A stretch of 63,629 bases of DNA, filler included, from Hausera hauseri (lineage: Eukaryota): assembly GCA_046269625.1 (NCBI GenBank). It is 12 parts of 12 records of this genome, joined end to end, with 100 filler letters (N's around TTAATTAATTAA, not from the genome) between each part and the next. Parts side by side here need not be neighbours in the genome. Positions count along the whole stretch, not along the records: positions 47,914 to 59,396 come from JBJURY010098875.1; 11 more parts are not named here. One strand, written 5' to 3'. Positions 5,320 to 62,400 of this stretch are shown piece by piece (the first letter of the stretch is position 1; every line of letters begins with the position of its first letter). A program made the position numbers and the translations under genes. Under the pieces are notes generated by a model. The model did no database searches and had not been told where the DNA came from. It worked only from the letters and a program-made list of their open reading frames with translations.

Positions 5320-5419
5320 NNNNNNNNNNNNNNNNNNNNNNNNNNNNNNNNNNNNNNNNNNNNTTAATTAATTAANNNNNNNNNNNNNNNNNNNNNNNNN
5401 NNNNNNNNNNNNNNNNNNN
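5320..5419. other. Artificial contig linker (N-TTAATTAATTAA-N). The same 100-nt linker is at 9972-10071, 14118-14217, 18487-18586, 22744-22843, 27188-27287, 31793-31892, 37846-37945, 43770-43869, 47814-47913 and 59397-59496
   Basis: Identical all-frame-stop 12-mer centred in N runs. Confidence 0.98.
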
Positions 5420-28342: not shown

Positions 28343-29152
28343 TTACCCCATCGTAACAAAGCGAAAACTATAAAGATCAAAATAGACGGAAAGAAAAAAT
28401 CACTAAACAAAAATTGTCTGTGTGAGGTGGTCTTAGTGTGGACATGACGTTGGGTGACTTCTACTGATTTTTCACTGCTATACTTGCTAAATATGACTCT
28501 ACGTGTTTTATCTGTATGCGATGTGTTTGCTTGCCGAATTTGAAGTTGGAGAAAAAAATTGTGAACAGCCTGTAGAGGTTGACGGTGTGTTCCGCCAGCC
28601 AAGCAGAACGTACGGAAGGAGTGTAGTCCAACTGCGATTGGACTCAGCATGGATTTTGAGAGACGTTTTCATCGTTCGGTGAAAGCGTTCGAGAAGGCAA
28701 TTCGTTTGAGGATGATATGGTGACGTGTGAATGTAATTAATTCCCAATCAATTGACAAGAGCTTTAAACAGGTAGGATTCGAACAGTGGACCTTGTTCCG
28801 AAATGATGTGTCGAGGTGATCCAAACCTGCTGATCCAAGTGCGGATGAAAACGTCTGCAATGGTTTCTGTGTTGCTGCTCCGAAGCAGGACAGCCTCTGG
28901 TCATCGCGTGGAACGGTTAATCATTGTGAGGATGAACTGATGGCCGTCGTCTAAGGGTAGTGGGCCTACAAGATCAATGTGAACAGATTCAAAACGAGAC
29001 GTGCAGGGAAAATGATATAAAGGTGGCTTTAAGTGCTTAGTAAATTTGTAATTTTGGCATGCCACACACTACCTACCCATGCCTGTACGTCAGAGTGCAT
29101 CGAGGTCCATACTACTTGGCGTTGTAAGAGTCAAAAAGTGGCCTTGGGACCA
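28343..29152 (-). mobile_element. Family A Gypsy integrase core (internally deleted element)
   Basis: GPKATF, CVACQ, VHIDLVGPLP, IISEQGPLFES, HTSPYHPQTNCLLERFHRTMK and GWRNTPSTSTGCS. Confidence 0.9.
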
Positions 29153-43869: not shown

Positions 43870-46800
43870 TTCCTAATATGTTTTGGAAACTTACACTATT
43901 TGAAATTCAACAGTGGCGTCAAGAGCAGAAGTAAAGACAAATTTTCGGGATCACCAATCAAAATTCCTGGAAATGATCCTGAATGAGATTCTGAAGAAGG
44001 ACGCATTCAAAACTCCGAAAATTTTCAAAGAAGGATACAATGCTGACCAAGTTTTGAAATGCATGGATGCATTTATGCGGCAGCTTGAGATATCGGAAGA
44101 AACCAAAGCTCATTTTTTCATAGAGTACTTAGAAGATGTTCAGTTACAGCCCAAATCAGCAGAATTTCTAATGGCTCAAGGAAACTTTTCAAAATTATAT
44201 GATTAGAAAAGGTCAAATATTTTATCATGGATGAAATTATTTGGCATTCAACAGAAGGATAGTCAATCAACGAAGGACTTCATGAAGGAAGTAAGAATTC
44301 GTTGTTTTAAGGAACAACTTGGGTTGACTTCTGAGGAAAGAGCCGAAAACTCTCTAGATTTTTATACATGGCCTGATTAATGACAGATTTCAAAAGACCC
44401 TAAAATGTTGCAGCCTAAAACCCTGGGTGAAGCATTTGTCATGATAAAAAAGGAATGTGAAACTCAGGAAATTCTGCCAGCGTTAAACTTACTGGCCAAG
44501 AATGATGATATACGCATGCTAAGGGCTGAAGTTTCTGAACTGAACAAACGCATTAGCTCCTTGCGTGAAACTGTGAAAATACTGCAGCAAGAAAAGGTAG
44601 CAGGTCAGCGGTCATATGAAAGTAGAAAGAATACCTCTATCAGAAAAAAAGACGGATGCTAGAATTGTGGAAGCAACAGTCACATTCTGAGGAACTGTGA
44701 AAGGTCTCTAGTTTACAAGAAATGCAACATGAAGAGGCATATAGAGAAATTTTGTGGAAACGAAAACCGTAATTCAATTCACGTGGTCGAGTCTGCTAGT
44801 ATATCAAGTAACGAAAGTGAAACAGACACGGGAATAAGCACAGAACCAAACATTTGTCATTTCAAACGCCAAGAAGTCGTACGCCAAAGTGATGAAAGAG
44901 AATATGACGACACGAAACCAAGTAAATTCGATTCCAGCGAAGAAAAAGAACACCAACACTGTAGAAAATCGGAACTAACCAGTTTGCTACGGGCGGATCA
45001 AGTGGAACAACGAAAAATCTTATTAGACACGGGAGTCGAAGTGAACGCTATCAGTAAAGACATGCTGGAAAAGATGAAAGGCTCAGATAACACGTTAACA
45101 ATCCGACAGTCATCCAGAAAAATCAAGTGCGCTGATGGATTTACAGTGCCAGTACAAGCGGGAGTGTCCCTGATGGTTGAATTAGGCGTTAAATTGTAAA
45201 CCTGCAACTTCTTAGTATTGGACTTTCTGAGACCTTGCATAATTCTTGGGATACGAAGTATGAAGTCTTGGGTTTAATATCGATCTTGATAATAATGTCA
45301 TTAATAGTGGAGCAATTTGTCCCCTTTATGTCTAAGGTGAATACAGACATAACAGTCCCAACAAATCAGTTAACCTAAAAGGGCACGGTTTTAGGAGTCG
45401 GAAACAGTATGTCTTGTGAGACTCAGACTGTAGTGGCTGCAGTTACACAAGAAGCGACCGAGATTGAGTGTATTTTATCCAAATTCTAAGGTGTGAATGA
45501 TAGCAATAGAGATAATATCACTAGCTTAGTGAAAGAATTCAGAGATGTATTTCGTTGTCAAAATATGATATAGGATTGGCGCGAAACGCTGAGCATAAAA
45601 TAGAACTTAAACATAAAAGCCCAATACAGGAACAAGCTAAGGTGAAATCCTATTGTACTATAAGAAAAGTTGATGATTTTGTGGAACAGTTGCTACAGAA
45701 AAATATAATTCAACCAAGTGTATAAGAGTAGAATGCTCCTATGGTTATTGTGCCGAAGAGGGAGGATGACATCAGACTTACGGTGGATTATCGGCGATTA
45801 AATCAAAAGATAAAAGTACCTTCATTTCCTATTCCGGACACGCAGCAACTATTTGATACTTTAAAAGGATCACAATTCTTTAGAAAATTTGATCTGCCTA
45901 CAGGATGCTATAACATACATCTTGCAGATTGTGACAGAGAGAAGACAGGTTTTAGTACGAGAAACGGACATTGAGTGCTTTTGAGATTGCCAATGAGCTT
46001 GGCAGCTGCGTCAGCCAATTTCTAGAATCGTGAAAACAACCTTGAAAAGAATTGTTGTATATTTAGATGTCTTAGTTTTTTGAAGAACGCAGGAAGAAAA
46101 TCTTGTCAGTCTGCGAAATGCGCAAATCAAAATAAGAGATGATGGCTTAAGAATCGCATCTTCAAGGTGTCATTTCGTCACAAATGATGTAAGGTACCTA
46201 GGCCACAAAGTGTCAGCCGATGGAATTTTAACGGATGAGAATAAAATGAAGTGCTTCCAAGATTTACTACATCCATAGTCTCCGAAATCACATTAAAGAT
46301 CACGTCTCTATTGTTGCGTAATTGTAAGAGCTGTGTAAGGACTTCTGGAATGATACAAAGACTACAAACATGCATCCGTTGCTATAGTAAGATTTTAAAC
46401 AATGTCTATCAACAGCTCTGTTCCAAATAGCCATGATCATTTTATTTATACAGATTCATGCGATAATACCATTCTTAAGTTCAATGTGGAGATGTAAGAA
46501 TGATAGCCTATACTTCACATAAACTGTCTACATAGTTGGTAATAGTTTCTAAGCATAAATACACAAAATGTTTAGACACTATTTGTTTGGAAGATTGTCA
46601 AAAGAACAGGCCACATGGTTATATTCTGAATGATGAATAGAAAAATACAAAGTACAATCCAATTTAGTTCATGACTCAATGAGCTAACTGTTTGGAGCTC
46701 CTGGACAATGTCAACAGTGTACAATAAATCACGAGAATCCCAAGGTGAAACAAAATGTGAAAAGCTACAATCAAAATCAAAATGATACAAAACCGTTGTT
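43870..46800 (+). mobile_element. Highly decayed Ty3/Gypsy element (gag, CCHC, protease, RT)
   Basis: FKTPKIFKEG, C*NCGSNSHILRNC, ILLDTGVEVNAIS, APMVIVPK..IRLTVDYRRLN..FPIP and VYLDV. Confidence 0.85.
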
Positions 46801-48026
46801 TATTGCCGTTGTATAATAATGGAAGAAGAATGACGATAATCTTGCGTTGATAATCAAACTAATGAAACACAAAAACATTGAAGAGCAGTATCCGGAAGAA
46901 CTCCAGAATACAGACAGAGAAGTCCAGACGTTGTGGTGAAATCGGATTTATAAGGGATTTGTTGTATATAAATCACCATGGAGAGTATAAACTACTATTG
47001 CCAAAATACAGGTTGTGTAGGTCATGCTCATATGTTATATGATCATATTGGATACATTATGCCTTCTCAAAACTGTTGTTAAGCTTGTTTTTCGATTGTC
47101 TCTTGTTTGCGTCCTCAGCTTTATTCTCTTATCACGAGAAGGCAATTAAGTGATCTCTAGTCTTTTCTTCTCCAGGGCCGTTCCACACTTCAGGTTTACC
47201 AGGACTTCAGCACACTATTAACATGGATGGCAGGGATGAATTCACCGAAGACAGCGAATGCTGCAGCAAAGTCCAAGGGCAGGACAGCCTTTCAGGTACA
47301 GGATGGAGGGAAGGGACGACATGGGAGGTAGGAGAACCGGGTGGAACGTCCTCGGAGCGAGGGGTGTTAGTGAGAATAAGCCCTGCTCTGTGCTCTGTTG
47401 TTTGTCTGTATTGATAGGGCTATGTTTGCCTCCATAGAAGAAAGCGATAGCGACGTTGACAACCACGGAGAAGACTCGTCTTCAAACACCTCCGTCGACG
47501 ACCACATGACCACCAAGAGGACACAGTGCCGCCTCGAAGGAGCGGGAGTCAAAGAGGTGAGAGAGTCTGCTGGAGTAGAAATGGCTTTTTTCATAGCCTA
47601 TAACCTTATTCCTATTTATTCATTAGTGTTACTAACAGTTCCAACTCTCGGCTTGTTTTTCTAGTGTCCGGACACCCGCCTCGGAATTCCATAATAAAAA
47701 AGTACTTTTTCTTCATATCAGCCGTTTTAAAGCTAAAATTATGTATTCAAACTAAAGACGGGGACTCAAGTCTCTTAAGTTGCACTTAAGTCACTTCAAA
47801 CCCATTCAGACTCNNNNNNNNNNNNNNNNNNNNNNNNNNNNNNNNNNNNNNNNNNNNTTAATTAATTAANNNNNNNNNNNNNNNNNNNNNNNNNNNNNNN
47901 NNNNNNNNNNNNNCATTATGCTGTTATTAACAGTTCGATCACTAATGTTATACTGTCATACTAATGTCAAATCAAAGTCTAATTTCAACAGATCGACGGG
48001 GGTTTTGAGAAATTGTCCTCAATTTA

Positions 48027-49276
48027 TTACTGGTCCAACGTTATGGATACGTGCATATATTTGCCCGAGGTTCTTGACTTGTACCGGATTGCCTCGGGCT
48101 CGTATACTTCATCGTCTAGTACTAACGTTTCATCCAACTGGATTCTTCGTTTCCTTCCGCCTTGAGATGTAGTTGGTGTTGTTCGCACCTGATTGGAAGC
48201 CGCGCTCTGGGTAATGTATTCGTCCGTCCATTTTAATTGTTTGTATATCGACTGGTAGCATTGAGCTAACGCAGTACTTCTGAGATTAAAGCCCTTTGTA
48301 TCGTAAAATTTGCGGGCTAATTCTTTGTAGGTGTTTGTGGATAGTTGGTACCGGCGGATGACTTCCTCGTGATATAAAATATCACGCACTCCTGCAATCC
48401 GTCGGATGGGGCATTTGAGATGGTTTATTACCATCTCTATCACGTCGGCTCCAATTACTATTCTGTCTGTGATAACTTCGGTCACCTTTCGATAGAATTC
48501 AGTTGGATCGGTTTGATTATTGATATTCAGTTCCGTGAGACCTGTGATGTGCGTATCAAAGTTGTTGATACGCTGTCTCGGGGTAATAATTCCATAGAAT
48601 AATGTGTCACCGTTGAGATTTAAGACTGAGGCTTCGATCGGCTGGAGTTGGTTCCATTGGTCGTAGGCCAGGTTGACGGCTGCTACGACCATATCTTTGT
48701 CAGACACTTTGTCTATTCTGCGATAAGGAATAGTCTTGTACTTTACATAGTCGGGCTCCGGCAAGTGAAAGCATTTACCTTCAGGGAGACTGGGATAAAA
48801 TTTTTCGTTTTTTATTACTTCCAATGCTAGAATCACTCGATTGGTACAGGAGCGAATTTTAAATATATTGTCTTTTAGAAACGAGAGATCGAAAGCAAGT
48901 CCGTGCTCAGAATCTAAATTTATCAGATCACCTTTGATGGAAGTCTTTCTATCCGTTGTCTTGATTTGAATTTGCCCTACAATATTGTACACATTCATCG
49001 AGTGAAATCGATCAGGCAGAATTATAATGTCAGTTAGGAGGAACGAAGTCGCTTTAGTTATTTGCATCAAGGCCAGAGATCGATTGGCCATACTATAACC
49101 TTTCAAATTATTCGGTATCTGCTGTGTCTGGGGATAATTCAAGCTGGTCATATTATCATTATGAGAGACATAGTATTGATTGGAAGGATTGGCGTTAATG
49201 ATGTGGGTCTTGGCATTACTATACCAATGCTTCGATCGATGAATATTCTGTACTTGATGGAGGGTTGATGCAGCAA
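48027..49276 (-). CDS. Accessory ORF of the enveloped Gypsy, with a DEDDh (REX4/ISG20-like) exonuclease-fold domain lacking canonical catalytic residues
   Basis: Open frame of 437 codons (48027-49340). PIEASVLNLNGDTLFYGIITP..THITGLT..VTEVITDRIVIG..VRDI..YKELARKF at 48229-48695, and a basic GRKRR near the C-terminus. The start is placed at a putative splice acceptor (AG 49277-49278). Confidence 0.7.
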
Positions 49277-49460
49277 CTGTAAATATAAAAGTTAATGGGT
49301 TGTTTATCATGAGACTAACATACAACACAACGGTTATCAAACATACGAAATAGGTAATCGTTGTGGTTTTCTTATTGTTTTTAGCAGGTGAGATAACTTG
49401 ATGTCGTTTAGTTATCCTTTTTATTGGGGTTGCATCTATTGCAATCCCTAACCATAACCG

Positions 49461-52400
49461 TCAGCTGGGATTGTCGGTATCTAACGGGTTCGTTAGATTA
49501 CGCATATCAATTCTAACCCAGATCCTGTTTCGTTTGAGTCGCCTACATGCGAATCTGCTTACTATTATTACTATGATTATCAACACAACGGGGGTTATGG
49601 TCCCTATGCATATCGTTTCTAACCGTGAATGCTTGTATACTGTTCGTGTTGGTTTAAATGTTGTCTTATGATTAATCGTTTTGGTTCTATTACGTACTGC
49701 TATGTCATACTCTATTTTCGTTATTGCTGTCATTATTTTGGTAGAGGTTACTCTACCTTTATCGTCTAGCAACTGTAAAATTATTGTGTATTGGGTGTTC
49801 GAGTCTAGAGCTGCACATGGTGCTACCAAATCATCCGGAGTTATTATTCCTTTAGCAACAACAGTTTCCTGTTTCTTACAAGTGAATTTAATCTTGATAA
49901 AATCTAGGTCCGGTCTGACTGAAATGATTAATGCAGACGGGGCTGCTATTATAGTAACGTTCTCCCATATGGATCGTCTTGTCCGATAGTAAGACGAGTA
50001 GGGTTTAACTAAAATAGTCATTTCCTTTTTATCCGTCGAAGGTTGTTCAGGGGATGCTATATTTTTCTCTGGTACATCATTATATTCTTTATGGTTTTTA
50101 TATCGTATATACATAGTCGGTCCTTTTCTATGCATCTTATTCCTTAATTTTCCGTATTCCTTTCGTGACAATGTGTAATTTACCTCGTATATTTTACCTC
50201 TTGTTACATTGCAGCAGACCTGTGGTCGTTCTTCTGTTATTTCACATTTCAACGACTGTTGTTCTTTTCCTATGTCTTTTATGGATATTGTTATCCATCG
50301 GATATATTCTAATTCTATCAAGCTCCTAATTTCTAAGCAACTCCGTCCACTTTTAAATCCCATTGGTTTTATCTTTACCTGTCTGAGTATTATCTCATCA
50401 AGCAGCGTTTCATTCATTTCCCGTCTGTTTGGGACTCGAATATACTTATAGAATTTAGTATATAGACTATGGTAATAGCCTCCTTGTTTTTTTATGAGTG
50501 TAAGATACACTTCATGTGTTCCTGAAGTATCTATTGGACATTTTATTTTATTCATGGATGATCGTACTAAGCAATCGTTCTTTTGTTCGTTAGAGTTCTT
50601 CTTATAACCGTAAATGGGGTCTGTTTGTATCCTTATAATATAATAACTAAGCATTCGTCTTGTGGTGTACCAATAGATGCACTTTTGGCCTTGCATGGAA
50701 TACGTTATTTTGTATTTCATACTTTTTAACCATAGGTCCTCGTTAAGGGCCGTGGCATGTCGTATTTTGGCTTGCTCAATTTCTTGTCCTGTCATCTGAC
50801 CAGCTGTCTGAGGTAATACAAAGATAATTGCTAACAATAGACTCTTCATTGTCCAATACATTTTATAGATAGCTTTTTCCGTTCTTACTTTTTCCTTAAT
50901 ACTTAAAACCGTTTCTTTTTCGTCTTTTCTTAACTCACTTCTTCGAGCTGCTGGTTTACATCTATTTATATGAACCTTCACCGACGCATTATTCTTCTTC
51001 AAACATATGTTTGGCAGACTTACTTTCTCTACTTCATAAGGACCCTTGTAAGGTCTATCCAGTTTAGAGGTTTTACCCTTTTTTATCGCTGGGGAGTATA
51101 GCATAACTTGGTCGCCTACTTTGATTTTTGGCTGTTTAGTCTTCTTATCGTAGTATTTCTTGTATTTAGATTTATACTCCTCTTGATTTCCACAGATCGT
51201 CTTGTAGGCTAATTGAAGACGTTCTTGCATTAGTTGTTTATAGTTTTCCACCTCCATTAAATGTGAGACAGGTCTCACATTAAAGTCCAAATCAATGGGT
51301 AATCTTGCGTCTCGTAAATACATTAGGTAGAAGGGAGTTTCCTTGGTGGCTTCGTGTACTGACGTTCGGTTTACAAATACACACGCGTTAACATACTCGT
51401 CCCAGTCGTCTTGTCTGGTATTTACTACTGTTTGTAGTTTCCCTTTTAAATCTCCGATGTACCTCTCAACTAACCCGTTATTCTCTGGGTGGCCTGGTGT
51501 GGAACGTAGCTTCAATATCTTTAAAATATCATAAATTGACTGCATTACAGTTCCTGTTAGATTTGAGGCCTGGTCAGTTAAAATAATTCTTGGGGCTCCG
51601 TAATTAAACACTACATTTTCCACAAATTTCTCAGCAATTGTGTCTGCCTTCATATCTGCCATTGGTATGGCTACCACCCATTTAGTAAAGTAGTCAATAA
51701 AGACTAAGATATATCGGTTTCCGTTCCGGGTTAGTGGTAGTGGTCCTGTTATATCCATTGCCGTAAATTCGAATGGTGCTGGGGGATTATCCCATACCTT
51801 TAATGGTGCCTTAAATTTGGATCCGGTGTTTTTACGTGTGGCACATAACTTACAACTTTCACACCATTCTTGTACATCCTTCATCATATTAGGCCAAAAA
51901 TACTTTCGTTTTAATTTATTGAGCGTCTTTCTTGCTGACTGATGTCCACCAAGTAATCCATCATGATATTGTGTTAACAATACTGGTCTATTTTTCTTTG
52001 GGATTACTAACGCTGGTCCGTCTTGGTGAATATAATATAGAAATCCATCTTTTTCTTCATATGCCTCACCAAATCGTGCTAAATGTCTCGCTAATTCCTT
52101 ATCTTCTGGTAATACCTTATTCTTTATGAAATTTCTAATTACTTTTATTTCGAAATCTTCCTGCTGGTTTTGTTTAATCTTTTCTACTGATCCGTCCATA
52201 CTCCAGACGGCTGCTACTACTTCTTTCTTTACCTTTGGATTCTCCGTCATTCGAGATAGATAGTCCGCATTGGCATTTCTCGTTCCAGGTTTATACTGGA
52301 AATTTAGTGTGTACGGTTGCAATTTAAGAGCCCAACGTAACAATCGGCTATTTGGGTTTTCGTGTTGCTTCAACCACTGTAATGGTCGATGGTCAGTGTA

Positions 52401-55400
52401 TATCAATAGTGGTTTATTCTCACTAATATACGGTGAAAATACTTCTAGGGCAAATATCACTGCCAATAATTCCTTCTCAATCACCGCGTATTTCTTTTGA
52501 TGCTTATTAAGTTTTCGTGAGGCATAGGCTACTGGGTGCTCCTTACCGTCTTCGCCCTTTTGTGATAGCACTGCTCCCACTCCATAGTCACTTGCATCCG
52601 TGGCTAGTATGAATGGTTTGTTCATATCTGGGTAAATTAATATAGGGGCAGTTACTAGTCTTTCCTTTAAATATTCGAATGCTTTTTGACAATTGGTAGT
52701 CCAAACTACTGTATCTAGGTCCTCACATAATAGTTCATATAGGGGTTTTGCAATCTTACTGAAATCCTTTATGAATCTCCGATAATAATTTGCCAAGCCT
52801 AGAAATCGCCGTAGTTCCCGAACTGTTGTCGGCTTCGGGAAGTCTTTTATTTTTCCCAATAATTTATCCTGTGGTTTTACACCATATTTGTCTACTCTAT
52901 GTCCCAGAAAATCTACTTCCGCCTGGGCAAAAGAACATTTCTTTGGATTTATCTTTAAGCCCATAATCTCGCATCTATCAAAAAGATCTTGTAGGTCTTT
53001 CAAATGTCTTTGGAAATTTGGTGATGCTATTATTACATCGTCAATGTATACCATGGCATGTGGAGCATCCAACAATAGGAGTTCTGTTCCTCTCTGAAAT
53101 GTTGGTGGTCCGTTCTTTAGCCCAAATGGCATCCTGTTAAACTCCCACAGTCCTTCTCCAATTGAGAAGGCCGTTTTTGGTTTGTCCTCTTCTTTTACTT
53201 CCACTTGCCAGTAACCTTTTTGTAAATCTATTGTTGAGAATATTGTTGATCCATGGAGCCTGTCTAGTATCTCATCAATCCTGGGCAATGGGTATGTATC
53301 CGTTTCAGTGATTTCATTTAATGCTCGGTAGTCTATGCAAAATCTCATAGTTCCGTCCTTTTTCTTGACCATTACTACAGGGGCCGTCCACGGGGAGCAA
53401 CTTGGTCGGATAATCTTATTTTCCCTCATCTCCTTAATTATTTTCCGTGCCTCCTGTTTCTTATCGTACGCTAATCGATATGGTCTCTTTTTGATTGGGT
53501 TATCATGGCCTTCTTTCAGTTTAATAGTATGCTGTATCACGTTCATAGTACCCAAATCATAGTCGTTTTGTGCGAACCGAGCATTATTCTTCTGCAATAA
53601 TTCGATTAGCGTCTTCTTTTCTTCTTGTGTTATAGTTTGGCAGTTCTGTAATTTTTCATGCCAATTGATATTGGTTGTTTTGACCTTTTTTATATCTTTC
53701 CTCGGTTCTCCTTTTAACTTTTCCTTCATTAATTTTTCTATTTTATCGATATCGGACAATGTTGAACTTGTTTCTTGTTTTACTACCCCTTCACTGGTTG
53801 TTACCTCACCCAATCTTGTATTCCGTCGTAATCTTCTTTTCCTATTTGTCGTATTGCAGATTCGTAAATGAATTCTTCCTTCCCTTACTTTGTCTACGTG
53901 AGGCGCTATTAAAATTTCATATTTTTCCATAACTTGCGCGAATGGTTCAAAGCACACTATTTCTGATAGTATAGGGCTTTCTATCTTTCCTGGCACTATG
54001 ATTTCAGATCGGGGTGGTATTATAATGTCTTTTGTTAACGAAACCTTTCCTCTATTTCTATCTTCATCAAACATTTTCAACTGACTGGTTTTTACGTCAA
54101 TATATACATTTTCTAACTGACTTAATACATCACACCCGATTAAAATTTCGTTTGTCAAATTGTCGGCTATTCTTATAGTATGTTTTACAGTTTGATCGCC
54201 GATTTTAATATCTGCGTCAAGAACCGTTTTTATTTCTTCTTCCTTACCGAACGCTCCTACATTTATTAATGTAGTTTTTGGTCTCCGTAACTTCCTTTTT
54301 AACTCCTTAGGTAGTAGGCTTTTCCCCATTATTGTGGTGGTAGATCCAGTGTCTAATAGAGCTATCATGGGGTATCCGTTCACTTCGATTTCTATTTCTG
54401 GTCTTATAGATGACCTTTCTTCTTTGTCGTCGGTTTTGTGCGTTGGTTCATGCCTATACGGTCTTACACCTTCTTCAAAATCTTGCCGCATCTGTAGCAC
54501 TTGATCTGTTGGGTACAATCCTGTATGTACCACGTATCTAGGAGCTGAAGGGTTTGCTATTAGTTGCTCGTTATATGGTTGTCCGTGATATTCGTCTATA
54601 GGATCTAAATGTGGTAGATCGGTCACGAGCTTGTGTCTGTATTTCGGTTTTCGTGTCTTTAGCATTATTTGCTTAATATTAGATATCCTTTTGTGTTCTG
54701 TCTTTGTCCTTCCTTGATCATAGTGGGTGTCATCATTATCAGGTATGCTATACAAAGATTCTTTATTGTCTCTCTTCTGTAATACTTTCTTCTTCCATCG
54801 TGCATCGTGATTCGTTAAGAAGCAACTTGCTACAGCTGGTATCACTGCTATCAGTATTTTCCACGAACACCCTACTGCTGCGTGTATTCCATATGCTTTA
54901 CCGAGGGCCGTAAATATTGTTCGTAACGCGCTAATAATGAAATATATTGCCAGAAAACCCGACGCGGCTTGTCCGAAATATAAGAACTTTCCCCACATTT
55001 TCTCCATGACATTTCTTGTTACTTTTTTTAAATAATCTTTACCCATAAGGTTTTCCCATTGTGGTGATCCTTCGCCGTCCCACATGACTCTCCGAGTCAG
55101 TTCGGTTATCACTCGTTGTCTTTGCTGTGGGAATAGTAGCATTCGTCGGTAATCTTCTAAGTTTTGTTGGGTATAAATTCCTCCTTGTGATATTTCTGTC
55201 AATGGCTCGAATTTCTGGTTTCTTTGTAGATTTATCAAACTCAGTGTCTCTGGTTTAGACACTGGTTCTCTTTTCGGCATCCTTATCCATTTATCATTAT
55301 CAATTTTAAACATTGGTGACATACTAAAAGTACAGTTATATAAGGGAGTGGGCTTTACCTGAGCATCAAGAAGTATCCTCGTTACTGGCATGACATATCG

Positions 55401-58400
55401 CGCTTCTGACTGGTAAACGACAGGTAGTTCCATTATACATTCTTCCGTAGGTCTGATTGATACTTCTACCTTCTTGCATTCTATGGTTATTAAGACCTCG
55501 CCCATCACTCGTCCGATAACTCCGTCGCCAAAAGGTAGTACCGGCGCTACCATATCCGGATTCGTTATCACCAATGCCATTTTATTACGCATTATTTCAT
55601 AATTCAATTTGCATTCATTCATTATTATTTCCCGGTATAAACCTCTAATCTCTTTTCTTACGTAGTTGATCAGGAAATCTATTTTATTATCAAAATATTG
55701 AGTTAACTTTATGTCTTTCTTATCTACTTTGGTTTTCGCTCCGGGTATTTCCTTTCGTGATAGGTAGATGCCCTTATAATTAGTCTTTGACATTTCTTCA
55801 TTACATTTCGTTATTACACCCGTAATCTTAAATCTCATCATTTCTTCTGGATTTTCTGAATAGACAATTGTGGCTACCTCAGTCATTTTAACTTCTTTTG
55901 TTCCCTCTTTATATGTTGCCGTCTCCTTTTCTGCTGTTTTTCCTACCGTTTTATTAAACTTTCCTTCTTTTAGCAATGTCAACTGACATTTACTTGCGGT
56001 GGTTTCCCAAGTCATTTTTGATTCTCCCGTATCGCATTCGCCGTTATCGTATTCGCATTCGTTCATCGTTGTCATTAATTTCGTTTGGGAATCGAATAGT
56101 CCTTCGTATTCTTTTAACTGTACCTGATAATCTTCTATGGCCACTGTTCTAGGTGCAATGGTGCCTCCAACGTCATAGTCTACTCCTCTACAGGTTCCTT
56201 CCATTGTCTTATCTATCCGTCCGGCTCTAAAAACCCTCGTGTATTTTACTCTGTTTCTTACTGCCGGTATATGTGCATTCTGTATGGTTATAATGCCAAT
56301 CTTAAAGGCATCCTGGCATTCTGCTCGGGATATTATTATCGGCTCGAAGGGTGTTGTAGGTTCAATTATGGCTGAATTCCCTGAGTAATATGCACAATTA
56401 AATAAGAAGAATGATTTCTTTACATAGCATTCTCTAATCTTTGTTTTTATGAATTCGGACTCTTGATACACCCAGTACGTAAGGCCACTGGTAGTTGTCA
56501 ATTGTTCTGGGTCGGCCTCTGGACATTTTTCTAAATCGACTAACGAATACTTTTGTCCTTCTCTGGGTTTGGAACAGTCATATGCTATAATTCCTACGGC
56601 TTTTGGCAATAACAATGAGGTTATCAACAGAATTTGTATTATTTCCATTATTGACATGCCCGTTATTCCTGTCCGAGGTATAGTTGGTTGGGTCCCCGTT
56701 GATCTATCTCTTTCTCGATCTTCCGTCCTAGTTATGGTTGTCGTCAAGCTGTTCAGCCATCCACCTCTGCATTGAGCCCAATTTCCCAGAGTATCTTTTA
56801 AAATTTTCACGATTGTTTTTATGTTTCGTTCTATTTCTTCCAGATTTTGTGTCTGATGGTTGATTACTATTATTTTATATAGTAAATAAGATATAGCCGT
56901 TTGGACCTTTTCCCGTGTAATGCCTGTGGCGAACATCTTTTCTAGAATATCTAATTCGTGTAGCTCGTTTATCCTTTCTTCTTCTAAATTCTCGTAAAAT
57001 TGTCTGCTTATTCTCAGCATATTATTACGTAAAGTATTAAATACTTCCTCTGGAATCATTGCCTGTGTGTCAAAAGAGACAAATGACGTGTGCATCTTGG
57101 CCAGTAACGTTCTTACTAGAGAATCTATATCTACCGACTCAGAAGTGCCATCTGTTCCTGCTAGTAATAAACGTCTTACTATTTCTTCATTCCTATCTTT
57201 TCTATTGCGAATGTCGCTTATTTTCGTTCCTCTTGGCCTGCCTCTTCTCTTGGCTTCCGTTTGAACCGTTACATCTTGTGTGTCATCCATTGGATTTTCT
57301 ACTTCCCGTGGTTCCGTTTCTTTTATTATTTCTTCCACCGTTGCTTGTGCTCTCGCCTCCGGGTGTATTTCGATTATGCTTATCGGATTATAATTCTCAC
57401 TTCTACATCCGATTCTCAATAATCGGTCATAACTGTACAGTGTCCTTCCATAATAACTTATTCCATAATGGCTACCGTGATAAAATGGTTCCAGTTCTTC
57501 TATCTTATTTCGTAAAGTTAGTATATCGTCCATTTCGTTCAGCCGTATAATCCTCATGTCCTGATTCCCTTCTTTTATCGTTATTCTAATAGCTTCATTT
57601 CTTCCTTTTCCTTCCTCAGCAGCTTTGGCTAATACCGTCCTAGCTATCTCCTTTACTGGACTGGTATCTTGGGCGAGTAATACCAATTGCGGTAAAATTT
57701 CGTTCAATTTTTCCGTCATTATTTTACTTGTGATGGTTTTTAGTATCGTCACAGTTGTTTTGTCTACATCGACTATATTGTTAGGGTCAATGGCCAACAC
57801 TGCTTCTATAATATCGTCTTCTTCGTCTAAATCCACGCCTGGATTCCTTATTACTTGGTCCAACACCGTTTCATCAAAAATAGGTATGGCCTGAGTTTCG
57901 TCTGGACTAAATGAGGGTGAGGGGGTACTGACGCTACTCTTCCTTCTTCCTCTTTTCTTTTCTTTTACTACTTCTTCCCTCTCTGTTGACGTTTCTCTTG
58001 ATCCAACTTCTTCATCAATTATTTTTTTATTACTTTTCTTTTTTCCTTTGCGAGATGTCTGTTTCTCCACTGGATCACCTACCATATAGGTATTACTTTC
58101 TTTCAACCTCTGCTGTTGTCTTTTATATTCTTTTACTTCTATTTCTAGCTGTTTCTTTATACGTGGGGGTAATGAATCACTTATGTAATTTATACCTTCT
58201 TTCTTCTTGTCTTTCTTTTTAACTTCTCGTTCACTAGCACTATCATCCGTTTCGTATTCTCTGTCGGATGATTCGTCTGACGTGGCGGATACATTATCTT
58301 TCTTTGACTTATTCTTCTTCGGTTTCGAGGAGTCCTTTTGACGTAACCTACATGATTTTGCTATATGCCCATACTTATTGCAATTGAAACATTTCAGTCT

Positions 58401-59204
58401 TCCTTCAGAGTCTATACTTGGTAATGATCTTCCATCTTTCTTATATTTCTTCTTGTAACTCGTTTTTTCTCCATCATTCCGTAAATTAAATCTTACTTTC
58501 TTCTCTCCATCTGATTCAGCTTCTGTTGCTGACGTTTGTGACGGACTTCTATTCCTTTCATATCGTTGGTACTTCTGCGTACTATTGTTTCTTCTTTTAT
58601 CGCTCCCATTATTGTTATTTCGGGCTTTGTTCCATCTGTATAATTCTGCATCCCTTTCGGCTTTCCGTGCTTTTCTTATTGCTTCTTGAAACGTTGGCGG
58701 GTCCGCTTGAGAAATTATCGTTCGTAGTCTTTCCTCTAGTCCATATTGGAATTGTGCTAACAGAGCGTTATTCCGTATCGTAACGTCTGGGTATGCTCTC
58801 GCTGCAAGTTTTTCCAATGCGCATACAAAGTCCTGGACGGATTCATCTTTCCGCTGCCTCCGTCTTATGAATTCTTCAATTCGTCCCTTTCCAGAGGGAT
58901 CTATCAAAAACTTTTGGGGCAGCTTTTCTTTTATATCCTTCCATTCCTTCTTTTCTTCTTCAGGCATTTGGAAATATACCATGAGAGCTGTTCCTTTCAA
59001 ATGCAAAGGTAATCTTTCTACCCTCTGTTTATCGTCCCAGCCAAAACTTTTAGAATACACCTCGTATTCCATCATAAAATCTTGGATATCTTCCTTGCCA
59101 GAGAACTTTTTCATGGGGAGGGTGAAGTCAGCCTTAGACTGAATCACCTGTTCTACTTTATTGCCTGTCATTTCTTCTTCACTTAGGTTGTCAAGGTATT
59201 CCAA
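49461..59204 (-). CDS. 3247-aa retroelement polyprotein Gag - UBL - class III envelope glycoprotein - PR - RT - RH - IN - second type I membrane protein
   Basis: Uninterrupted 9.7-kb ORF. CFNCNKYGHIAKSC (aa ~272), signal + AYDC (aa ~850-877), LLDTGS (aa ~1618), YIDD (aa 2053), TDASDYG..ELL..TDH RNase H, HHCC + DDE integrase + GPY, second signal (aa ~2782), RTRR/S (aa 3074) and TM (aa ~3198-3215). The ORF finder used a TTG start; the first ATG is at ~59171. Confidence 0.95.
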   Translation of the reverse strand: MEYLDNLSEEEMTGNKVEQVIQSKADFTLPMKKFSGKEDIQDFMMEYEVYSKSFGWDDKQRVERLPLHLKGTALMVYFQMPEEEKKEWKDIKEKLPQKFLIDPSGKGRIEEFIRRRQRKDESVQDFVCALEKLAARAYPDVTIRNNALLAQFQYGLEERLRTIISQADPPTFQEAIRKARKAERDAELYRWNKARNNNNGSDKRRNNSTQKYQRYERNRSPSQTSATEAESDGEKKVRFNLRNDGEKTSYKKKYKKDGRSLPSIDSEGRLKCFNCNKYGHIAKSCRLRQKDSSKPKKNKSKKDNVSATSDESSDREYETDDSASEREVKKKDKKKEGINYISDSLPPRIKKQLEIEVKEYKRQQQRLKESNTYMVGDPVEKQTSRKGKKKSNKKIIDEEVGSRETSTEREEVVKEKKRGRRKSSVSTPSPSFSPDETQAIPIFDETVLDQVIRNPGVDLDEEDDIIEAVLAIDPNNIVDVDKTTVTILKTITSKIMTEKLNEILPQLVLLAQDTSPVKEIARTVLAKAAEEGKGRNEAIRITIKEGNQDMRIIRLNEMDDILTLRNKIEELEPFYHGSHYGISYYGRTLYSYDRLLRIGCRSENYNPISIIEIHPEARAQATVEEIIKETEPREVENPMDDTQDVTVQTEAKRRGRPRGTKISDIRNRKDRNEEIVRRLLLAGTDGTSESVDIDSLVRTLLAKMHTSFVSFDTQAMIPEEVFNTLRNNMLRISRQFYENLEEERINELHELDILEKMFATGITREKVQTAISYLLYKIIVINHQTQNLEEIERNIKTIVKILKDTLGNWAQCRGGWLNSLTTTITRTEDRERDRSTGTQPTIPRTGITGMSIMEIIQILLITSLLLPKAVGIIAYDCSKPREGQKYSLVDLEKCPEADPEQLTTTSGLTYWVYQESEFIKTKIRECYVKKSFFLFNCAYYSGNSAIIEPTTPFEPIIISRAECQDAFKIGIITIQNAHIPAVRNRVKYTRVFRAGRIDKTMEGTCRGVDYDVGGTIAPRTVAIEDYQVQLKEYEGLFDSQTKLMTTMNECEYDNGECDTGESKMTWETTASKCQLTLLKEGKFNKTVGKTAEKETATYKEGTKEVKMTEVATIVYSENPEEMMRFKITGVITKCNEEMSKTNYKGIYLSRKEIPGAKTKVDKKDIKLTQYFDNKIDFLINYVRKEIRGLYREIIMNECKLNYEIMRNKMALVITNPDMVAPVLPFGDGVIGRVMGEVLITIECKKVEVSIRPTEECIMELPVVYQSEARYVMPVTRILLDAQVKPTPLYNCTFSMSPMFKIDNDKWIRMPKREPVSKPETLSLINLQRNQKFEPLTEISQGGIYTQQNLEDYRRMLLFPQQRQRVITELTRRVMWDGEGSPQWENLMGKDYLKKVTRNVMEKMWGKFLYFGQAASGFLAIYFIISALRTIFTALGKAYGIHAAVGCSWKILIAVIPAVASCFLTNHDARWKKKVLQKRDNKESLYSIPDNDDTHYDQGRTKTEHKRISNIKQIMLKTRKPKYRHKLVTDLPHLDPIDEYHGQPYNEQLIANPSAPRYVVHTGLYPTDQVLQMRQDFEEGVRPYRHEPTHKTDDKEERSSIRPEIEIEVNGYPMIALLDTGSTTTIMGKSLLPKELKRKLRRPKTTLINVGAFGKEEEIKTVLDADIKIGDQTVKHTIRIADNLTNEILIGCDVLSQLENVYIDVKTSQLKMFDEDRNRGKVSLTKDIIIPPRSEIIVPGKIESPILSEIVCFEPFAQVMEKYEILIAPHVDKVREGRIHLRICNTTNRKRRLRRNTRLGEVTTSEGVVKQETSSTLSDIDKIEKLMKEKLKGEPRKDIKKVKTTNINWHEKLQNCQTITQEEKKTLIELLQKNNARFAQNDYDLGTMNVIQHTIKLKEGHDNPIKKRPYRLAYDKKQEARKIIKEMRENKIIRPSCSPWTAPVVMVKKKDGTMRFCIDYRALNEITETDTYPLPRIDEILDRLHGSTIFSTIDLQKGYWQVEVKEEDKPKTAFSIGEGLWEFNRMPFGLKNGPPTFQRGTELLLLDAPHAMVYIDDVIIASPNFQRHLKDLQDLFDRCEIMGLKINPKKCSFAQAEVDFLGHRVDKYGVKPQDKLLGKIKDFPKPTTVRELRRFLGLANYYRRFIKDFSKIAKPLYELLCEDLDTVVWTTNCQKAFEYLKERLVTAPILIYPDMNKPFILATDASDYGVGAVLSQKGEDGKEHPVAYASRKLNKHQKKYAVIEKELLAVIFALEVFSPYISENKPLLIYTDHRPLQWLKQHENPNSRLLRWALKLQPYTLNFQYKPGTRNANADYLSRMTENPKVKKEVVAAVWSMDGSVEKIKQNQQEDFEIKVIRNFIKNKVLPEDKELARHLARFGEAYEEKDGFLYYIHQDGPALVIPKKNRPVLLTQYHDGLLGGHQSARKTLNKLKRKYFWPNMMKDVQEWCESCKLCATRKNTGSKFKAPLKVWDNPPAPFEFTAMDITGPLPLTRNGNRYILVFIDYFTKWVVAIPMADMKADTIAEKFVENVVFNYGAPRIILTDQASNLTGTVMQSIYDILKILKLRSTPGHPENNGLVERYIGDLKGKLQTVVNTRQDDWDEYVNACVFVNRTSVHEATKETPFYLMYLRDARLPIDLDFNVRPVSHLMEVENYKQLMQERLQLAYKTICGNQEEYKSKYKKYYDKKTKQPKIKVGDQVMLYSPAIKKGKTSKLDRPYKGPYEVEKVSLPNICLKKNNASVKVHINRCKPAARRSELRKDEKETVLSIKEKVRTEKAIYKMYWTMKSLLLAIIFVLPQTAGQMTGQEIEQAKIRHATALNEDLWLKSMKYKITYSMQGQKCIYWYTTRRMLSYYIIRIQTDPIYGYKKNSNEQKNDCLVRSSMNKIKCPIDTSGTHEVYLTLIKKQGGYYHSLYTKFYKYIRVPNRREMNETLLDEIILRQVKIKPMGFKSGRSCLEIRSLIELEYIRWITISIKDIGKEQQSLKCEITEERPQVCCNVTRGKIYEVNYTLSRKEYGKLRNKMHRKGPTMYIRYKNHKEYNDVPEKNIASPEQPSTDKKEMTILVKPYSSYYRTRRSIWENVTIIAAPSALIISVRPDLDFIKIKFTCKKQETVVAKGIITPDDLVAPCAALDSNTQYTIILQLLDDKGRVTSTKIMTAITKIEYDIAVRNRTKTINHKTTFKPTRTVYKHSRLETICIGTITPVVLIIIVIIVSRFACRRLKRNRIWVRIDMRNLTNPLDTDNPS
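54812..56657 (-). other. Chuvirus/herpes gB-type class III fusion glycoprotein domain within the polyprotein
   Basis: Signal peptide, GIIAYDC..SLVDLEKCP, C.DAF..G, CKL..IMRN..LV.TNPD, GEVLITIECKKVEVSIRPTEECIMELPV, and WGKFLYFGQAASGFLAIYFII..AYGIH..VGCSW.IL. These match chuvirus-like G motifs as I recall them. Confidence 0.85.
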
Positions 59205-59297
59205 TCCAAAAGGTATATTTTCTTCTCTTTGATATATTGTCCCTTTCCTGGTAGTTATTTTGCTTCTGTTTATCTAAAGGTCCTAACAAATTTATAG

Positions 59298-59316
59298 ATC
59301 CCGGGTCACGGCACCA
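59298..59316 (-). promoter_or_regulatory. tRNA-His primer binding site
   Basis: TGGTGCCGTGACCCGGGAT is nearly identical to the canonical tRNA-His PBS TGGTGCCGTGACTCGGAT. It lies 3 nt after ..TGAACA and ~100 nt upstream of gag. Confidence 0.88.
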
Positions 59317-59319
59317 GTT

Positions 59320-59396
59320 TGTTCAATTCTTCCTTTTATGACAGAATTTAATAAGAAATTTTTATTATATTTGGATTACTTTAGATTGAACAAATT
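59320..59396 (-). repeat. 3' end (R/U5) of the 5' LTR of the enveloped Gypsy, truncated by the contig end
   Basis: Ends in CA just before the PBS and contains AATAAA. Confidence 0.6.
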
Positions 59397-59496: not shown

Positions 59497-62400
59497 TTTG
59501 ATCTTTTCATCTGTAGGCGTATTATCTAGTGCGGTTAACTCGAACAAGGAGCGAACAGGTGTTCCAAATAATGTTTCGGTAGGTGAGCATCCTGTGGAAG
59601 TGGATGGCGTATTCTGCCAACCGAGCAGAACCATAGGAAGAAAAACAGTCCAATTACTGTTGGATTCAGCGAGAATTTTTAGCGACATTTTCAGGGTTCT
59701 GTGAAATCTCTCAATAAGACCGTTTGATTGTGGATGATAAGGCGTACTGTGTATATGACGGATTCCCAATTTGTTGATGAGTGATTTGAATAGATTGGAT
59801 TCGAATTGGGGACCTTGGTCCGAAATGATAAATCTAGGAGAACCAAACCTGCTGATCCAAGTGCGGATGAAAACTTCTGCTATAGTATCCGTGTTAGTGC
59901 TTCGTAGAGGGACAGCTTCTGACCAACGTGAAGCGCGATCCATCATGGTTAAAATGAATTGATGACCGTTGTCAAGAGGAAGAGGACCGACGATATCTAT
60001 ATGTACGGACTCGAAACGTGATGTACAAGGGAAGTGATATAGTGGTGGCTTTGGATGTTTGGTGATTTTAAATATCTGGCAAGCCACGCACTCCTTAACC
60101 CATGCTTGGACATCGGAACGCATTGTCGGTCATATTATCTGCCGGTGAAGTAGGCGAAAAGTTGCCTTAGCACCAGGGTGATGTAGTGGATGTACGCTGT
60201 TAAACGCTTGCCGTTGTAAAGTTGGTGCGAGAATTATTACGGAATGACCTGGTTTGGAAGTGTCGAAAGCTACGCCGTCAATGATGTAAGATCGGAAAGT
60301 TTTAAGCATGTCTGAAGGTGGTTGATTTTCTTGCAGCTGATCTTGTGTGGATATAGGTTTTAAATTGATGGAGCTAACGGATCTTGAAAGGAAATCGGCG
60401 ACTAAATTGTTTACACCGTTAATGTCTTTGATCTCGAAATTAAACGTCGACAAGTAAGAGATCTGACGTGCCTGCCTAGATGATGGATGTTTCATTGTCA
60501 TGATGTTGATTAAAGGTTTGTGATCGGTCTGTATGGTGAAACGTCGAGCAGTAAATGTGAAGTATTTTAAGGCAAGAACTATCGTCAGTAGTTCTCGGTC
60601 GAAGGTGGAGTATCTAGTTTTGGGCGGTGTTAACTTGCGTGAAAAGAATTACAAAGGCTGGTTTTCACCCTTATAGATTTGATAAAGTACGGCGCCTACA
60701 GCGGTGGTGGAGGCGTCTGTAGTGAGGATCAGCTGTGTATCGTGCTTTGGAAAAGCTAATATTTCGACAGTTTTTAAACCTTCTCTTAGCTTTTCGAATT
60801 TGTTTACAAGTTCAGAAGTCCGTAGTATTGGTTGGTGTTTCTTTCCACCATTAAGGTGAGCAAATGGTGCGGTAAGTTCAGAGCAGTATTGCACATACTT
60901 GTGGATGAAATGCAAAGTGCCCAAAAGCTCCTCATTTCTGTTGTACGAGGTAGCTGCACGTTTTTAAGGCTTCAACTCGGACAGACTGAGGCGAGTTACC
61001 TTCGGCAGAAATAACGTGACAAAGAAAATGTATACGCTTCTGAAAAAAGTGGCATTTAGCGAAATTTATCTGCAGGTTATGTTGGTGTAAGCGTTGAAAG
61101 ATTGACCTGAGGTGTTCTTCGTGTTGTTTGGTTGAGGAAGAAGCAATTAATATGTCATCGATATAATGATGAGCATATGGAAAATCGGAAAGGATAGTAT
61201 CGATGTGGCGTTGGAAAGTCTGTGCAGCATTTCGTAAGCCAAAAGGCATGTACAGATATTCGTATATGCCAAAAGGAGTAGTGACGGCTGTTTTTTCGAT
61301 ATCCTCAGGTGCCACAGGAATTTGATGGTAGACTTTGGATAAATCAATGGTAGAATAAATTGCAGTTGAGTGGAGACGGTGTAAGATATCCTTAATGAGT
61401 AGCAACGGGTATGCATCCATTATTGTCAGTGTTCAACTGACGGTAATCACCACGTGGTCGAAAAGTTCCATCCTTCTTTTGCACGACATGTAATGGTGGC
61501 GACCATGGGGATTTGGAACGACGTACAATTCCGGAACGTTCTAGTTCTAGAAATTCGCCTTCAATTGCCTGTCTACGACGAGGAGATAAAGGACGCACCT
61601 TGTGGCGGATAGGTCTGATGTTGTGTCACAATGTGGTGAAAAGTGGTGTGTGCTGGTGTAAAAGACCTATCTTTTTGAATAATTCTGGAACAAGATACGT
61701 GGATGAATTGCTGCAGACTTGCAGGTAATTGTGGGAAGTTTGGTGGAAGCGAGGAGGTCTTACCGGTAACTTTCATGGTATCAGTAACAGTAGCAATTCG
61801 GACGTTATTTGGTGGTCGAGAGTGAAGTGGTATTCGATGCATGATGGTAGTATTGAAGATGGTATTGTAATTTGTAGTTATTATCGAAGGATTTGGTAGT
61901 AGTAACAGGATCACTTTCATCGCTGTGTAAACCCCAATTGTCAATAACATTGTTCTTTAGTGATTTATAAAACAAAGTGCCATGGTTATAAGAAAAAGGT
62001 TTGTTTAACGATTTTTTAATATCGGCTTTCGAGTTGCATTCATCCGTGCGACAGCCGAAATTGTGTCGTAACGAATCGCTCCTTACTGCGACCACTTGTT
62101 AAGCAGCGTTGTTTGCAATCAACAGAGGTTATAGTGCGAAAGAAAATTGGATCCTAAAATGGCTGTTTGGACATTTGCGACGGTAAATGTCCAGTGAAAC
62201 GTTTGAGTAAATTTCGGGAGGATAAAAGAAAGCCTACATGTACCGGAAACATGTCGCGGTTGTCGGGAAGGTGTGAATAAAGGTTTAATTTTTGATGGAG
62301 TGTGTTGAGTTGGAAAGGTGAGCGGTAGTAAAGAAATCGCTGCACTTGAATCAATGAGAAAATCTGTGTTGAGGTGTCGGTGCGATGGTGGAGGCTTGTA

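Follow-up and report, generated by a model that had tools for sequence, protein, structure and literature searches.

A compact, probably Burro-related Ty3/gypsy element of Hausera hauseri with a predicted class III fusogen in frame between Gag and Pol, and a likely route to enveloped particles by threading of its polyprotein through the endoplasmic reticulum

In planarians, according to the text of Arkhipova and Yushenova (2019, PMC6431247), the Burro/GYPSM1 elements, for which that text cites Grohme et al. (2018) and Jurka (2007), encode a single polyprotein in the order Gag, Ubi/SUMO-like, BCL2-like, env, protease (PR), dUTPase-like, reverse transcriptase (RT), RNase H (RH) and integrase (IN), and are termed the first case of an env placed in frame between gag and pol. 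A later catalogue (Chary and Hayashi 2026, PMC13524379) lists GAG-ENV-POL errantiviruses with an ENV of the herpes simplex virus (HSV)/glycoprotein B (gB) type from Platyhelminthes, Bryozoa and Nematoda, and its text cites Sacco et al. (2022, J Gen Virol 103:1739) for a nematode metavirus with ENV before POL. Here we describe an element of this kind on the minus strand of contig JBJURY010098875.1, which forms part of a 63,629-nt stretch of Hausera hauseri DNA (assembly GCA_046269625.1; the whole stretch analysed is called the window below). We consider it quite probable that this is a Ty3/gypsy element in which Gag, a ubiquitin-like (Ubl) domain, a Bcl-2-fold domain, a class III fusogen (Env) and Pol are joined in one frame, that it is a compact relative of Burro, and that it gives rise to enveloped particles by way of a polyprotein threaded through the membrane of the endoplasmic reticulum (ER). 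The in-frame Gag-Env-Pol layout is not new, because it has been in print since 2019 for planarian Burro/GYPSM1; the statement of an earlier note on this DNA, that no retroelement of this architecture had been described, was thus wrong in view of both Burro/GYPSM1 and the GAG-ENV-POL catalogue. A continuous gag-env-pro-pol open reading frame (ORF), together with other accessory ORFs, was reportedly also found by Sacco and colleagues in 2022 in nematode endogenous retroviruses.

An ORF scan yielded one stop-to-stop frame of 3270 codons on the minus strand (59273-49461). The scan confirmed the single stop-free ORF of ~9.7 kb and 3247 aa that had been noted before and added its strand, which had been left unstated. 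From the N- to the C-terminus the polyprotein contains the following parts.

47914..59396, minus strand: whole element-bearing contig, flanked on both sides by artificial N44-TTAATTAATTAA-N44 spacers
49461..59204, minus strand: single polyprotein ORF of 3247 aa if begun at the TTG (59204) and of 3236 aa if begun at the first ATG (59171)
58653..59114, minus strand: capsid-like domain of Gag, aa 31-184 (sub-threshold Pfam match to Ty3_capsid, E 8.5e-5)
58350..58391, minus strand: CCHC zinc knuckle, aa 272-285 (Pfam zf-CCHC, aa 271-286)
57360..57602, minus strand: ubiquitin-like domain, aa ~535-615 (matches of a five-sequence profile to ubiquitin-like domains)
56730..57137, minus strand: Bcl-2-fold domain with a BH2-like GGW motif, aa ~690-825 (Pfam, profile and structure model)
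56592..56657, minus strand: internal signal peptide 1, aa ~850-871 (hydrophobic run, predicted cleavage between AVG and IIAYDC)
54975..56591, minus strand: predicted class III (gB/chuvirus-G-like) fusogen ectodomain (Pfam PF24664, model and Foldseek)
54903..54971, minus strand: Env transmembrane helix, aa ~1412-1434, predicted single crossing
54813..54869, minus strand: second hydrophobic segment with Cys and Pro, likely interfacial and not membrane-spanning
54111..54404, minus strand: aspartyl protease, LLDTG, aa 1601-1698 (Pfam)
53775..54062, minus strand: conserved ~95-aa block between PR and RT (8/12 relatives tested, E<0.01)
52311..53369, minus strand: RT (YIDD, aa 1946-2104) and RNase H (aa 2193-2298) (Pfam)
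50955..52004, minus strand: integrase with H2C2 zinc finger, rve core (Pfam, aa 2401-2573) and C-terminal part
50799..50858, minus strand: predicted internal signal peptide 2, aa ~2783-2802 (hydropathy peak 1.5, missing a stricter threshold)
49551..50798, minus strand: second predicted type I membrane protein with a ~390-aa FN3-like ectodomain (lead only) and a transmembrane helix at aa 3197-3218

The segment previously assigned to Env (54812-56657) was found to be delimited as proposed, with the predicted signal peptide at aa ~850-871 and the anchor at aa ~1412-1434. The Pfam family Monjiviricetes_fusion (PF24664) matched aa 854-1494 with an E-value of 3.4e-89. An AlphaFold model of Env aa 871-1410, based on a 103-sequence alignment, had a mean pLDDT (predicted local distance difference test) of 90, and Foldseek searches with this model retrieved post-fusion herpesvirus gB from the PDB (best HSV-1 gB, E 6e-15, TM-score ~0.42) and glycoproteins of chu-like viruses from BFVD (best E 5e-38, TM-score up to 0.75). 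The ectodomain is full-length and retains the cysteines conserved over the 103 aligned glycoproteins. A sequence-level search of the PDB with Env alone gave no match, and a viral contig collection contained no relatives of Env or of the downstream ORF2 described below. Judged by the Pfam match and the modelled fold, Env belongs to the class III fusogens and within these to the chuvirus/gB type, in agreement with the earlier suggestion. It had also been placed in frame between the Gag zinc knuckle and the DTG protease; order and frame hold, direct adjacency does not, as ~560 aa with the ubiquitin-like and Bcl-2-fold domains, both absent from the earlier note, intervene between knuckle and Env.

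A hydrophobic run ahead of the Env N-terminal x-x-x-[YF]DC was present in 19/19 proteins examined; the cleavage site of signal peptide 1 was placed by eye. At the other end of Env, the first of the two hydrophobic segments favours membrane insertion over the second in 18/18 proteins, with insertion energies of about -0.9 to 3.2 versus 3.7 to 9.4 kcal/mol on a simple scale, and the second usually holds Cys-Pro. As Pol must be cytosolic to work, only one of the two segments can span the membrane, and the consistently more favourable first segment would thus keep Pol in the cytosol.

Upstream of Env, the capsid-like domain is 25-31% identical to that of five relatives. The five-sequence profile of the ubiquitin-like domain matched the UBL of UHRF1 (E 7e-6), ISG15 (4e-5) and ubiquitin (2e-4), while a Pfam search with the element's own segment alone gave no match. 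For the Bcl-2-fold domain, the Pfam match was weak (E 1e-4; 7/8 aligned members, two members having been picked by eye for the GG motif), and the corresponding profile matched Bcl-xL at 1e-5, ranked behind one designed-repeat match. The structure model (pLDDT 89.7) gave a best VIA Z-score of 13.0 with a root-mean-square deviation of 2.8 over 127 aligned residues; the top 34 rows were all cellular or viral Bcl-2-type proteins, and unrelated rows started at Z 6.0. This domain occurs in some relatives but not in all.

Downstream of Env, the Pfam matches agreed with the proposed Ty3/Gypsy order PR-RT-RH-IN, which, together with the capsid domain (below cut-off), the CCHC knuckle and a tRNA primer-binding site (PBS), places the element among the Ty3/gypsy elements (Metaviridae). 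The ~95-aa block between PR and RT occupies the position of the Burro dUTPase-like domain. The polyprotein runs ~490 aa beyond the integrase, a part that had been overlooked. A signal-like segment similar to signal peptide 2 follows the integrase in 6/6 relatives with a full Pol, and a C-terminal transmembrane segment was found in 5/6, with post-integrase ectodomains that barely align. Atlas features of the ectodomain pointed to fn3 clusters (0.91) at a recognition of 1827, which is below the reliable range and makes the fibronectin type III (FN3) likeness a lead only; the relative P0008 carries an Ig domain at the same position (E 4e-8). Other arrangements were seen as well: P0003-P0006, P0036-P0038 and P0046 have two or three aspartyl-protease-like domains, one of which lies after the integrase in P0003 and P0004, and P0145 (1000 aa) has Ig domains fused ahead of a fusogen of this family.

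Seven long proteins share Env with the element at 29-39% identity. In line with the expectation that other copies would show the same order, Env precedes the protease in one chain in 7/7, and six of the seven continue through RT-RH-IN. Two clusters of long relatives comprise 7 and 21 members. Thirteen further long matches included eight with Env followed by the protease in one protein, three with Env and no protease match, and two with other contexts. Across nine elements, RT and Env distances were correlated (Spearman 0.70, permutation p 0.003). The metagenome locus L001 (403-11781), a distant relative on a contig of 29% G+C, has a complete open frame with the same layout including ORF2, and its Env is 34% identical. 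In public runs X1, X2 and X3, of which X1 may come from the source sample and which share variants and are not fully independent, 21,354 (at 85% likeness), 2,957 and 108 contigs, respectively, aligned to the element; these runs contain a large, diverged multi-copy family of the element. One X2 contig crosses the Bcl-2/signal/Env junction gap-free (56376-56892). Among the best-supported 40 of 2,076 differences, 35 lie in the polyprotein, 21 of these being synonymous and none creating a stop.

The contig might be a collapsed or chimeric assembly of several repeats, given that it is short, stems from such a large and diverged family, and is spanned as a whole by none of the listed pieces. We regard the chance of this as very remote, because Env stands before the protease within one protein in all seven long relatives. 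The same order recurs in independent assemblies at the Env identities given above, including both clusters, L001 repeats the entire layout, and no joint skips Env among 15 of 57 joints. The earlier note had named failure to match a fusogen, chimeric junctions and relatives lacking Env as grounds for giving up its reading; where examined, none of these was encountered. A mosaic of close copies is possible and would leave the architecture unchanged.

The element shares with Burro/GYPSM1, as described in the text of PMC6431247, a CCHC-containing Gag, a Ubi/SUMO-like domain ahead of the BCL2-like domain, an env in frame between the latter and the protease, and RT-RH-IN, all in one polyprotein, with a conserved block here at the position of the domain that Burro has inserted between PR and RT; the Burro env is likewise related to mononegavirus-type fusion glycoproteins. 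In contrast, Burro ORF1 has 4873-5140 aa in an element of >30 kb, compared to 3247 aa on an 11.5-kb contig here, and contains two to three zinc knuckles, compared to one. Pfam gave no match in this element for MATH, BIR or ankyrin domains, which are part of the Burro cargo. As size and cargo of Burro are not matched, we refer to the element as Burro-like and not as a Burro. A post-integrase membrane protein, an exonuclease ORF or readthrough are not mentioned in the Burro text; its figure 2A may show such features.

The GAG-ENV-POL errantiviruses of PMC13524379 resemble the element in gene order, Ty3/gypsy Pol and an Env of the gB type between gag and pol, which here has a predicted signal peptide and transmembrane helix. 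By eye and not by computation, Env of Smed_errantivirus_1-6 shares the motifs YQES, CDTGES and TNY-G-Y and the cysteine spacing; this Env differs from each of the six Smed Env segments shown there. A flatworm is the likely host. A tRNA-His PBS is listed there for none of nine flatworm elements, unlike the element described here. The main text contains neither 'polyprotein' nor 'fused' and no discussion of processing. According to the coordinates in its supplement 1, the GAG-ENV-POL spans are multiples of three in 45/47 cases (flatworm 7/8, bryozoan 10/10, nematode 28/29) versus 12/35 in a molluscan GAG-POL-ENV control; in a second control set, too, multiples of three were favoured (11/17, p 0.008). 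Rows touching contig ends were omitted (one flatworm, seven nematode, one control), and the test speaks to a shared frame, not to the absence of stops. This suggests that the three 'ORFs' of the catalogued elements are usually in one frame. A glycoprotein of the same family, that of chuviruses, has also been captured by the Anakin elements, which have a BEL/Pao backbone (Dezordi et al. 2020, PMC7642597, in the part consulted); in the BEL/Pao example P0113, the glycoprotein follows a DUF5641 domain at the end of Pol.

With 11.5 kb versus >30 kb, the element thus represents a small open-frame member of a group for which the available text of PMC6431247 and PMC13524379 gives no account of processing, and it raises the question of how a retroelement builds particles with Env between Gag and Pol. 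Its anatomy predicts two internal signal peptides, one membrane crossing of Env, attachment of Pol to the membrane at its N- and its C-terminus, and a tail anchor for the Bcl-2 domain in the form of a spent signal peptide. Signal peptide 1 would direct Env into the lumen, and the cut by signal peptidase would leave Gag-Ubl-Bcl-2 in the cytosol, held at the membrane by the spent signal. Cellular Bcl-2 proteins are membrane-anchored just after BH2, and the capsids of flaviviruses and rubella are anchored by a downstream signal. The single transmembrane helix of Env, as a type I protein, would return the chain to the cytosol, where PR-RT-RH-IN would fold as a tail of Env. Signal peptide 2 would direct the FN3/Ig-like accessory protein to the lumen, so that Pol is held at the membrane by both of its termini. 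Gag and Pol would then meet on one membrane, assemble, and leave the cytosol by budding into the secretory route as particles that display Env and the accessory protein and are matured by the element's own protease. The Bcl-2 fold would likely prevent death of the producer cell, and a few ribosomes may pass the TGA-CGG stop at the end of the frame to add a pseudo-exonuclease that would bind RNA and not cut it. This ER-threading/signal-peptidase model is consistent with the conserved predicted signal peptides and the one favourable transmembrane crossing. Packaging of Pol through Env, as proposed earlier, is only one option, because Pol is predicted to be tethered C-terminally as well by signal peptide 2.

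Alternatively, most of the Gag, Env and accessory protein might come from separate spliced or shortened RNAs, with the full polyprotein as a minor product and no 1:1:1 stoichiometry. A capsid takes much more Gag than Pol, both membrane modules are equipped with a signal peptide that lies close to a Met (aa 850 and 2786), and two blocks shared among copies (49460-49521 and 49303-49370) could be RNA-processing signals. However, the frame is open over all junctions in the relatives with 29-39% Env identity, and the catalogued spans are nearly all multiples of three; both are most readily accounted for by selection for uninterrupted translation across the junctions, and we consider production mainly from separate RNAs unlikely. 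It is less probable still that the element moves only within cells and uses a non-fusogenic Env as a membrane scaffold for assembly. Such a role would agree with the lack of any direct sign of particles or infection, both here and in the published passages on such elements, but fits poorly with a full-length ectodomain that has kept its conserved cysteines and a confidently modelled class III fold.

Several observations count against an intact, particle-forming element whose polyprotein threads the ER. The topology of Env and of the whole polyprotein was derived from hydropathy and a position-independent insertion scale. The element had been called intact, which applies to the ORF and not to the element as a whole: self-comparison gave no long terminal repeat (LTR) pair in the contig, which ends 80 nt upstream of the PBS, and no purine-rich polypurine tract (PPT) was visible in it. 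A dUTPase-like label for the PR-RT block obtained no match in the PDB or in Pfam. The RT and Env trees were mostly unresolved and contained no named reference sequences. Under a 31-base rule, no contig among those listed bridges the Env/linker or the linker/protease junction. Finally, among 11 related metagenome loci L001 is the only one with a complete open frame, ten being partial or broken, and L002 has an in-frame stop between Gag-Bcl-2 and Env.

Two features at the 5' end of the element bear on its classification.

59305..59316, minus strand: PBS for tRNA-His(GUG), 12/12, exact complement of the tRNA-His(GUG) 3' 12-mer in supplement 1 of PMC13524379
59320..59392, minus strand: 73-nt TG...CA segment close to the PBS on its upstream side, with inverted ends of 8 bp; present only once in the contig

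The complementarity to the published 12-mer agrees with the earlier assignment of a tRNA-His PBS. The 73-nt segment is probably the 3' end of a 5' LTR truncated by the contig end. At the 3' end of the element (47990-48020, minus strand), a gypsy-like GAGGACA stretch followed by a C-run occupies the position expected for a purine-rich PPT; L001 has a purine-rich tract at the corresponding position.

The polyprotein frame continues beyond its stop codon into a second ORF.

49458..49463, minus strand: candidate leaky stop in the context TGA-CGG, the hexamer of type II readthrough
48027..49460, minus strand: ORF2, 477 codons, in frame past the stop, first Met at 49310
49269-49358, minus strand: ORF2 hydrophobic segment
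about 48231-48698, minus strand: ORF2 DEDDh-like putative pseudo-exonuclease (profile and Atlas)

According to the consulted part of PMC13517186, UGACGG is the type II readthrough hexamer of Venezuelan equine encephalitis virus and coltivirus and requires a downstream stem-loop, and type II readthrough is defined there by UGA-CGG/CUA, an in-frame downstream ORF and an extended 3' stem-loop from about +12. The hexamer and the in-frame downstream ORF are present in this element and in L001. Both polyprotein frames end in TGA-CGG-TTA, although CGG is rare (0.9% of triplets in this element, 0.2% in L001), and L001 ORF2 (607 codons) is homologous to ORF2 described here (25% identity, E 2e-9). In both, a hydrophobic stretch precedes or crosses the first Met of ORF2. 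Among 40 of 77 rows, indels between copies in the early ORF2 segment appear to net 0 or +3, and the sole change in the hexamer is UGA-CGA. Predicted RNA structures had z-scores of -1.8 to -3.5 in most windows tried, and of -0.9 and +1.0 in two. In L001 an extended stem starts at +11 (z +1.0 with a 60-nt window, otherwise -1.8 to -3.5 depending on the window); in the best fold of this element, the stop region is base-paired to a block that lies ~110 nt further downstream (z -2.9).

Readthrough is opposed by the absence of codon-position bias in the first 60 ORF2 codons (7/9/10, with 17/26 changes non-synonymous), by the modest predicted structures around the stop, which differ between the two elements, and by the paralogue P0184 (57% identical), whose annotation starts at a Met ahead of the hydrophobic stretch. 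These points would suit a separate gene that is expressed from its own start, by reinitiation or from a subgenomic RNA, with TGA-CGG as an ordinary stop: P0184 is annotated with such a start, codon-level constraint on the early ORF2 codons is weak, and complete examples of the junction number only two. Against such a gene stand the direct in-frame TGA-CGG-TTA in both elements with their rare CGG, the position of the hydrophobic stretch before or across the first Met, the apparently frame-neutral indels and the one listed hexamer change, which gives UGA-CGA. We judge an ordinary stop followed by a separate gene to have an even chance, and the odds for TGA-CGG readthrough into ORF2, as read from sequence, are likewise about even. 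Two ~60-nt blocks, those at 49460-49521 and 49303-49370 mentioned above, are common to many more diverged copies than their flanks; the former ends at the stop codon, and the latter spans the first Met of ORF2 and is predicted to pair with the stop region.

The ORF2 profile matched ISG20L2 (E 4e-5) and SDN1 (6e-3) as well as ISG20, and Atlas returned RNase_T (0.89), in agreement with the exonuclease profile. Pfam gave no match to ORF2 at E<=0.01. The D-C-E of SDN1 aligns to A-V-N in both ORF2 and P0184, so that the acidic D-x-E residues of ExoI are missing and the exonuclease domain is likely catalytically inactive. If reached by readthrough, the hydrophobic segment would tend to send the pseudo-exonuclease to the lumen, which would fit poorly with a role in RNA defence. 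No longer protein with the ORF2 domain turned up in a search for such proteins, which is weak evidence. Rfam returned one sub-threshold small nucleolar RNA match, taken as chance, and no match to a selenocysteine insertion sequence (SECIS), so that nothing supports a selenocysteine reading of the UGA. A 2A motif at the polyprotein end DTDNPS, which loosely resembles the 2A consensus, was rejected, as it lacks an NPGP ending and is not shared with L001. A by-eye impression of this exonuclease domain upstream of Env in P0044 was unsupported by the ORF2 profile.

Exonuclease ORFs are known from other LTR elements. Bdelloid Juno/Vesta elements carry a DEDDy exonuclease in ORF3 (Rodriguez et al. 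2017, PMC5408684, in the part consulted) and resemble the element in having a 3' ORF of the DEDD exonuclease family and ORFs with transmembrane segments. The Juno/Vesta ORFs are RNase D-like DEDDy proteins with largely intact catalytic residues, whereas ORF2 is ISG20/SDN1 DEDDh-like, lacks the ExoI acids and lies in frame behind UGA-CGG. Neither the post-integrase surface protein nor the conserved UGA-CGG junction was found in the literature searched, where further figures, supplements and the authors' repository may show them. We tentatively entertain, as a doubtful possibility, a compact Burro-like lineage in which signal peptide 2 frees an FN3/Ig-like type I protein, a candidate attachment factor in addition to the fusogen, and a conserved alphavirus-style UGA-CGG readthrough adds an ISG20/SDN1-like pseudo-exonuclease. 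If true, small amounts of this protein could shield the element RNA from host small-RNA/dsRNA defence, and the organisation of the element would resemble that of an RNA-virus polyprotein whose cargo counters apoptosis and RNA defence. If both the post-integrase surface protein and the UGA-CGG junction were confirmed, an accessory gene under readthrough control would be new among the parts of LTR elements.

The window is made up of 4-11 kb contigs, of which the element takes up one (~11.5 kb), separated by 11 spacers of the type given above (starts at 5320, 9972, 14118, 18487, 22744, 27188, 31793, 37846, 43770, 47814 and 59397). As these joints are artificial, the neighbours of the element in the window are unlinked to it and the neighbourhood across spacers is artificial; the description of the element as surrounded by decayed elements therefore does not apply. 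No tRNA genes were found in the window. Broken gypsy pol fragments, none of them with a match to Env, occur on other contigs of the window at 28655-29068, 31896-32444, 39413-41271, 45564-46022 and 59638-61613 and are 27-45% identical to Pol of this element.

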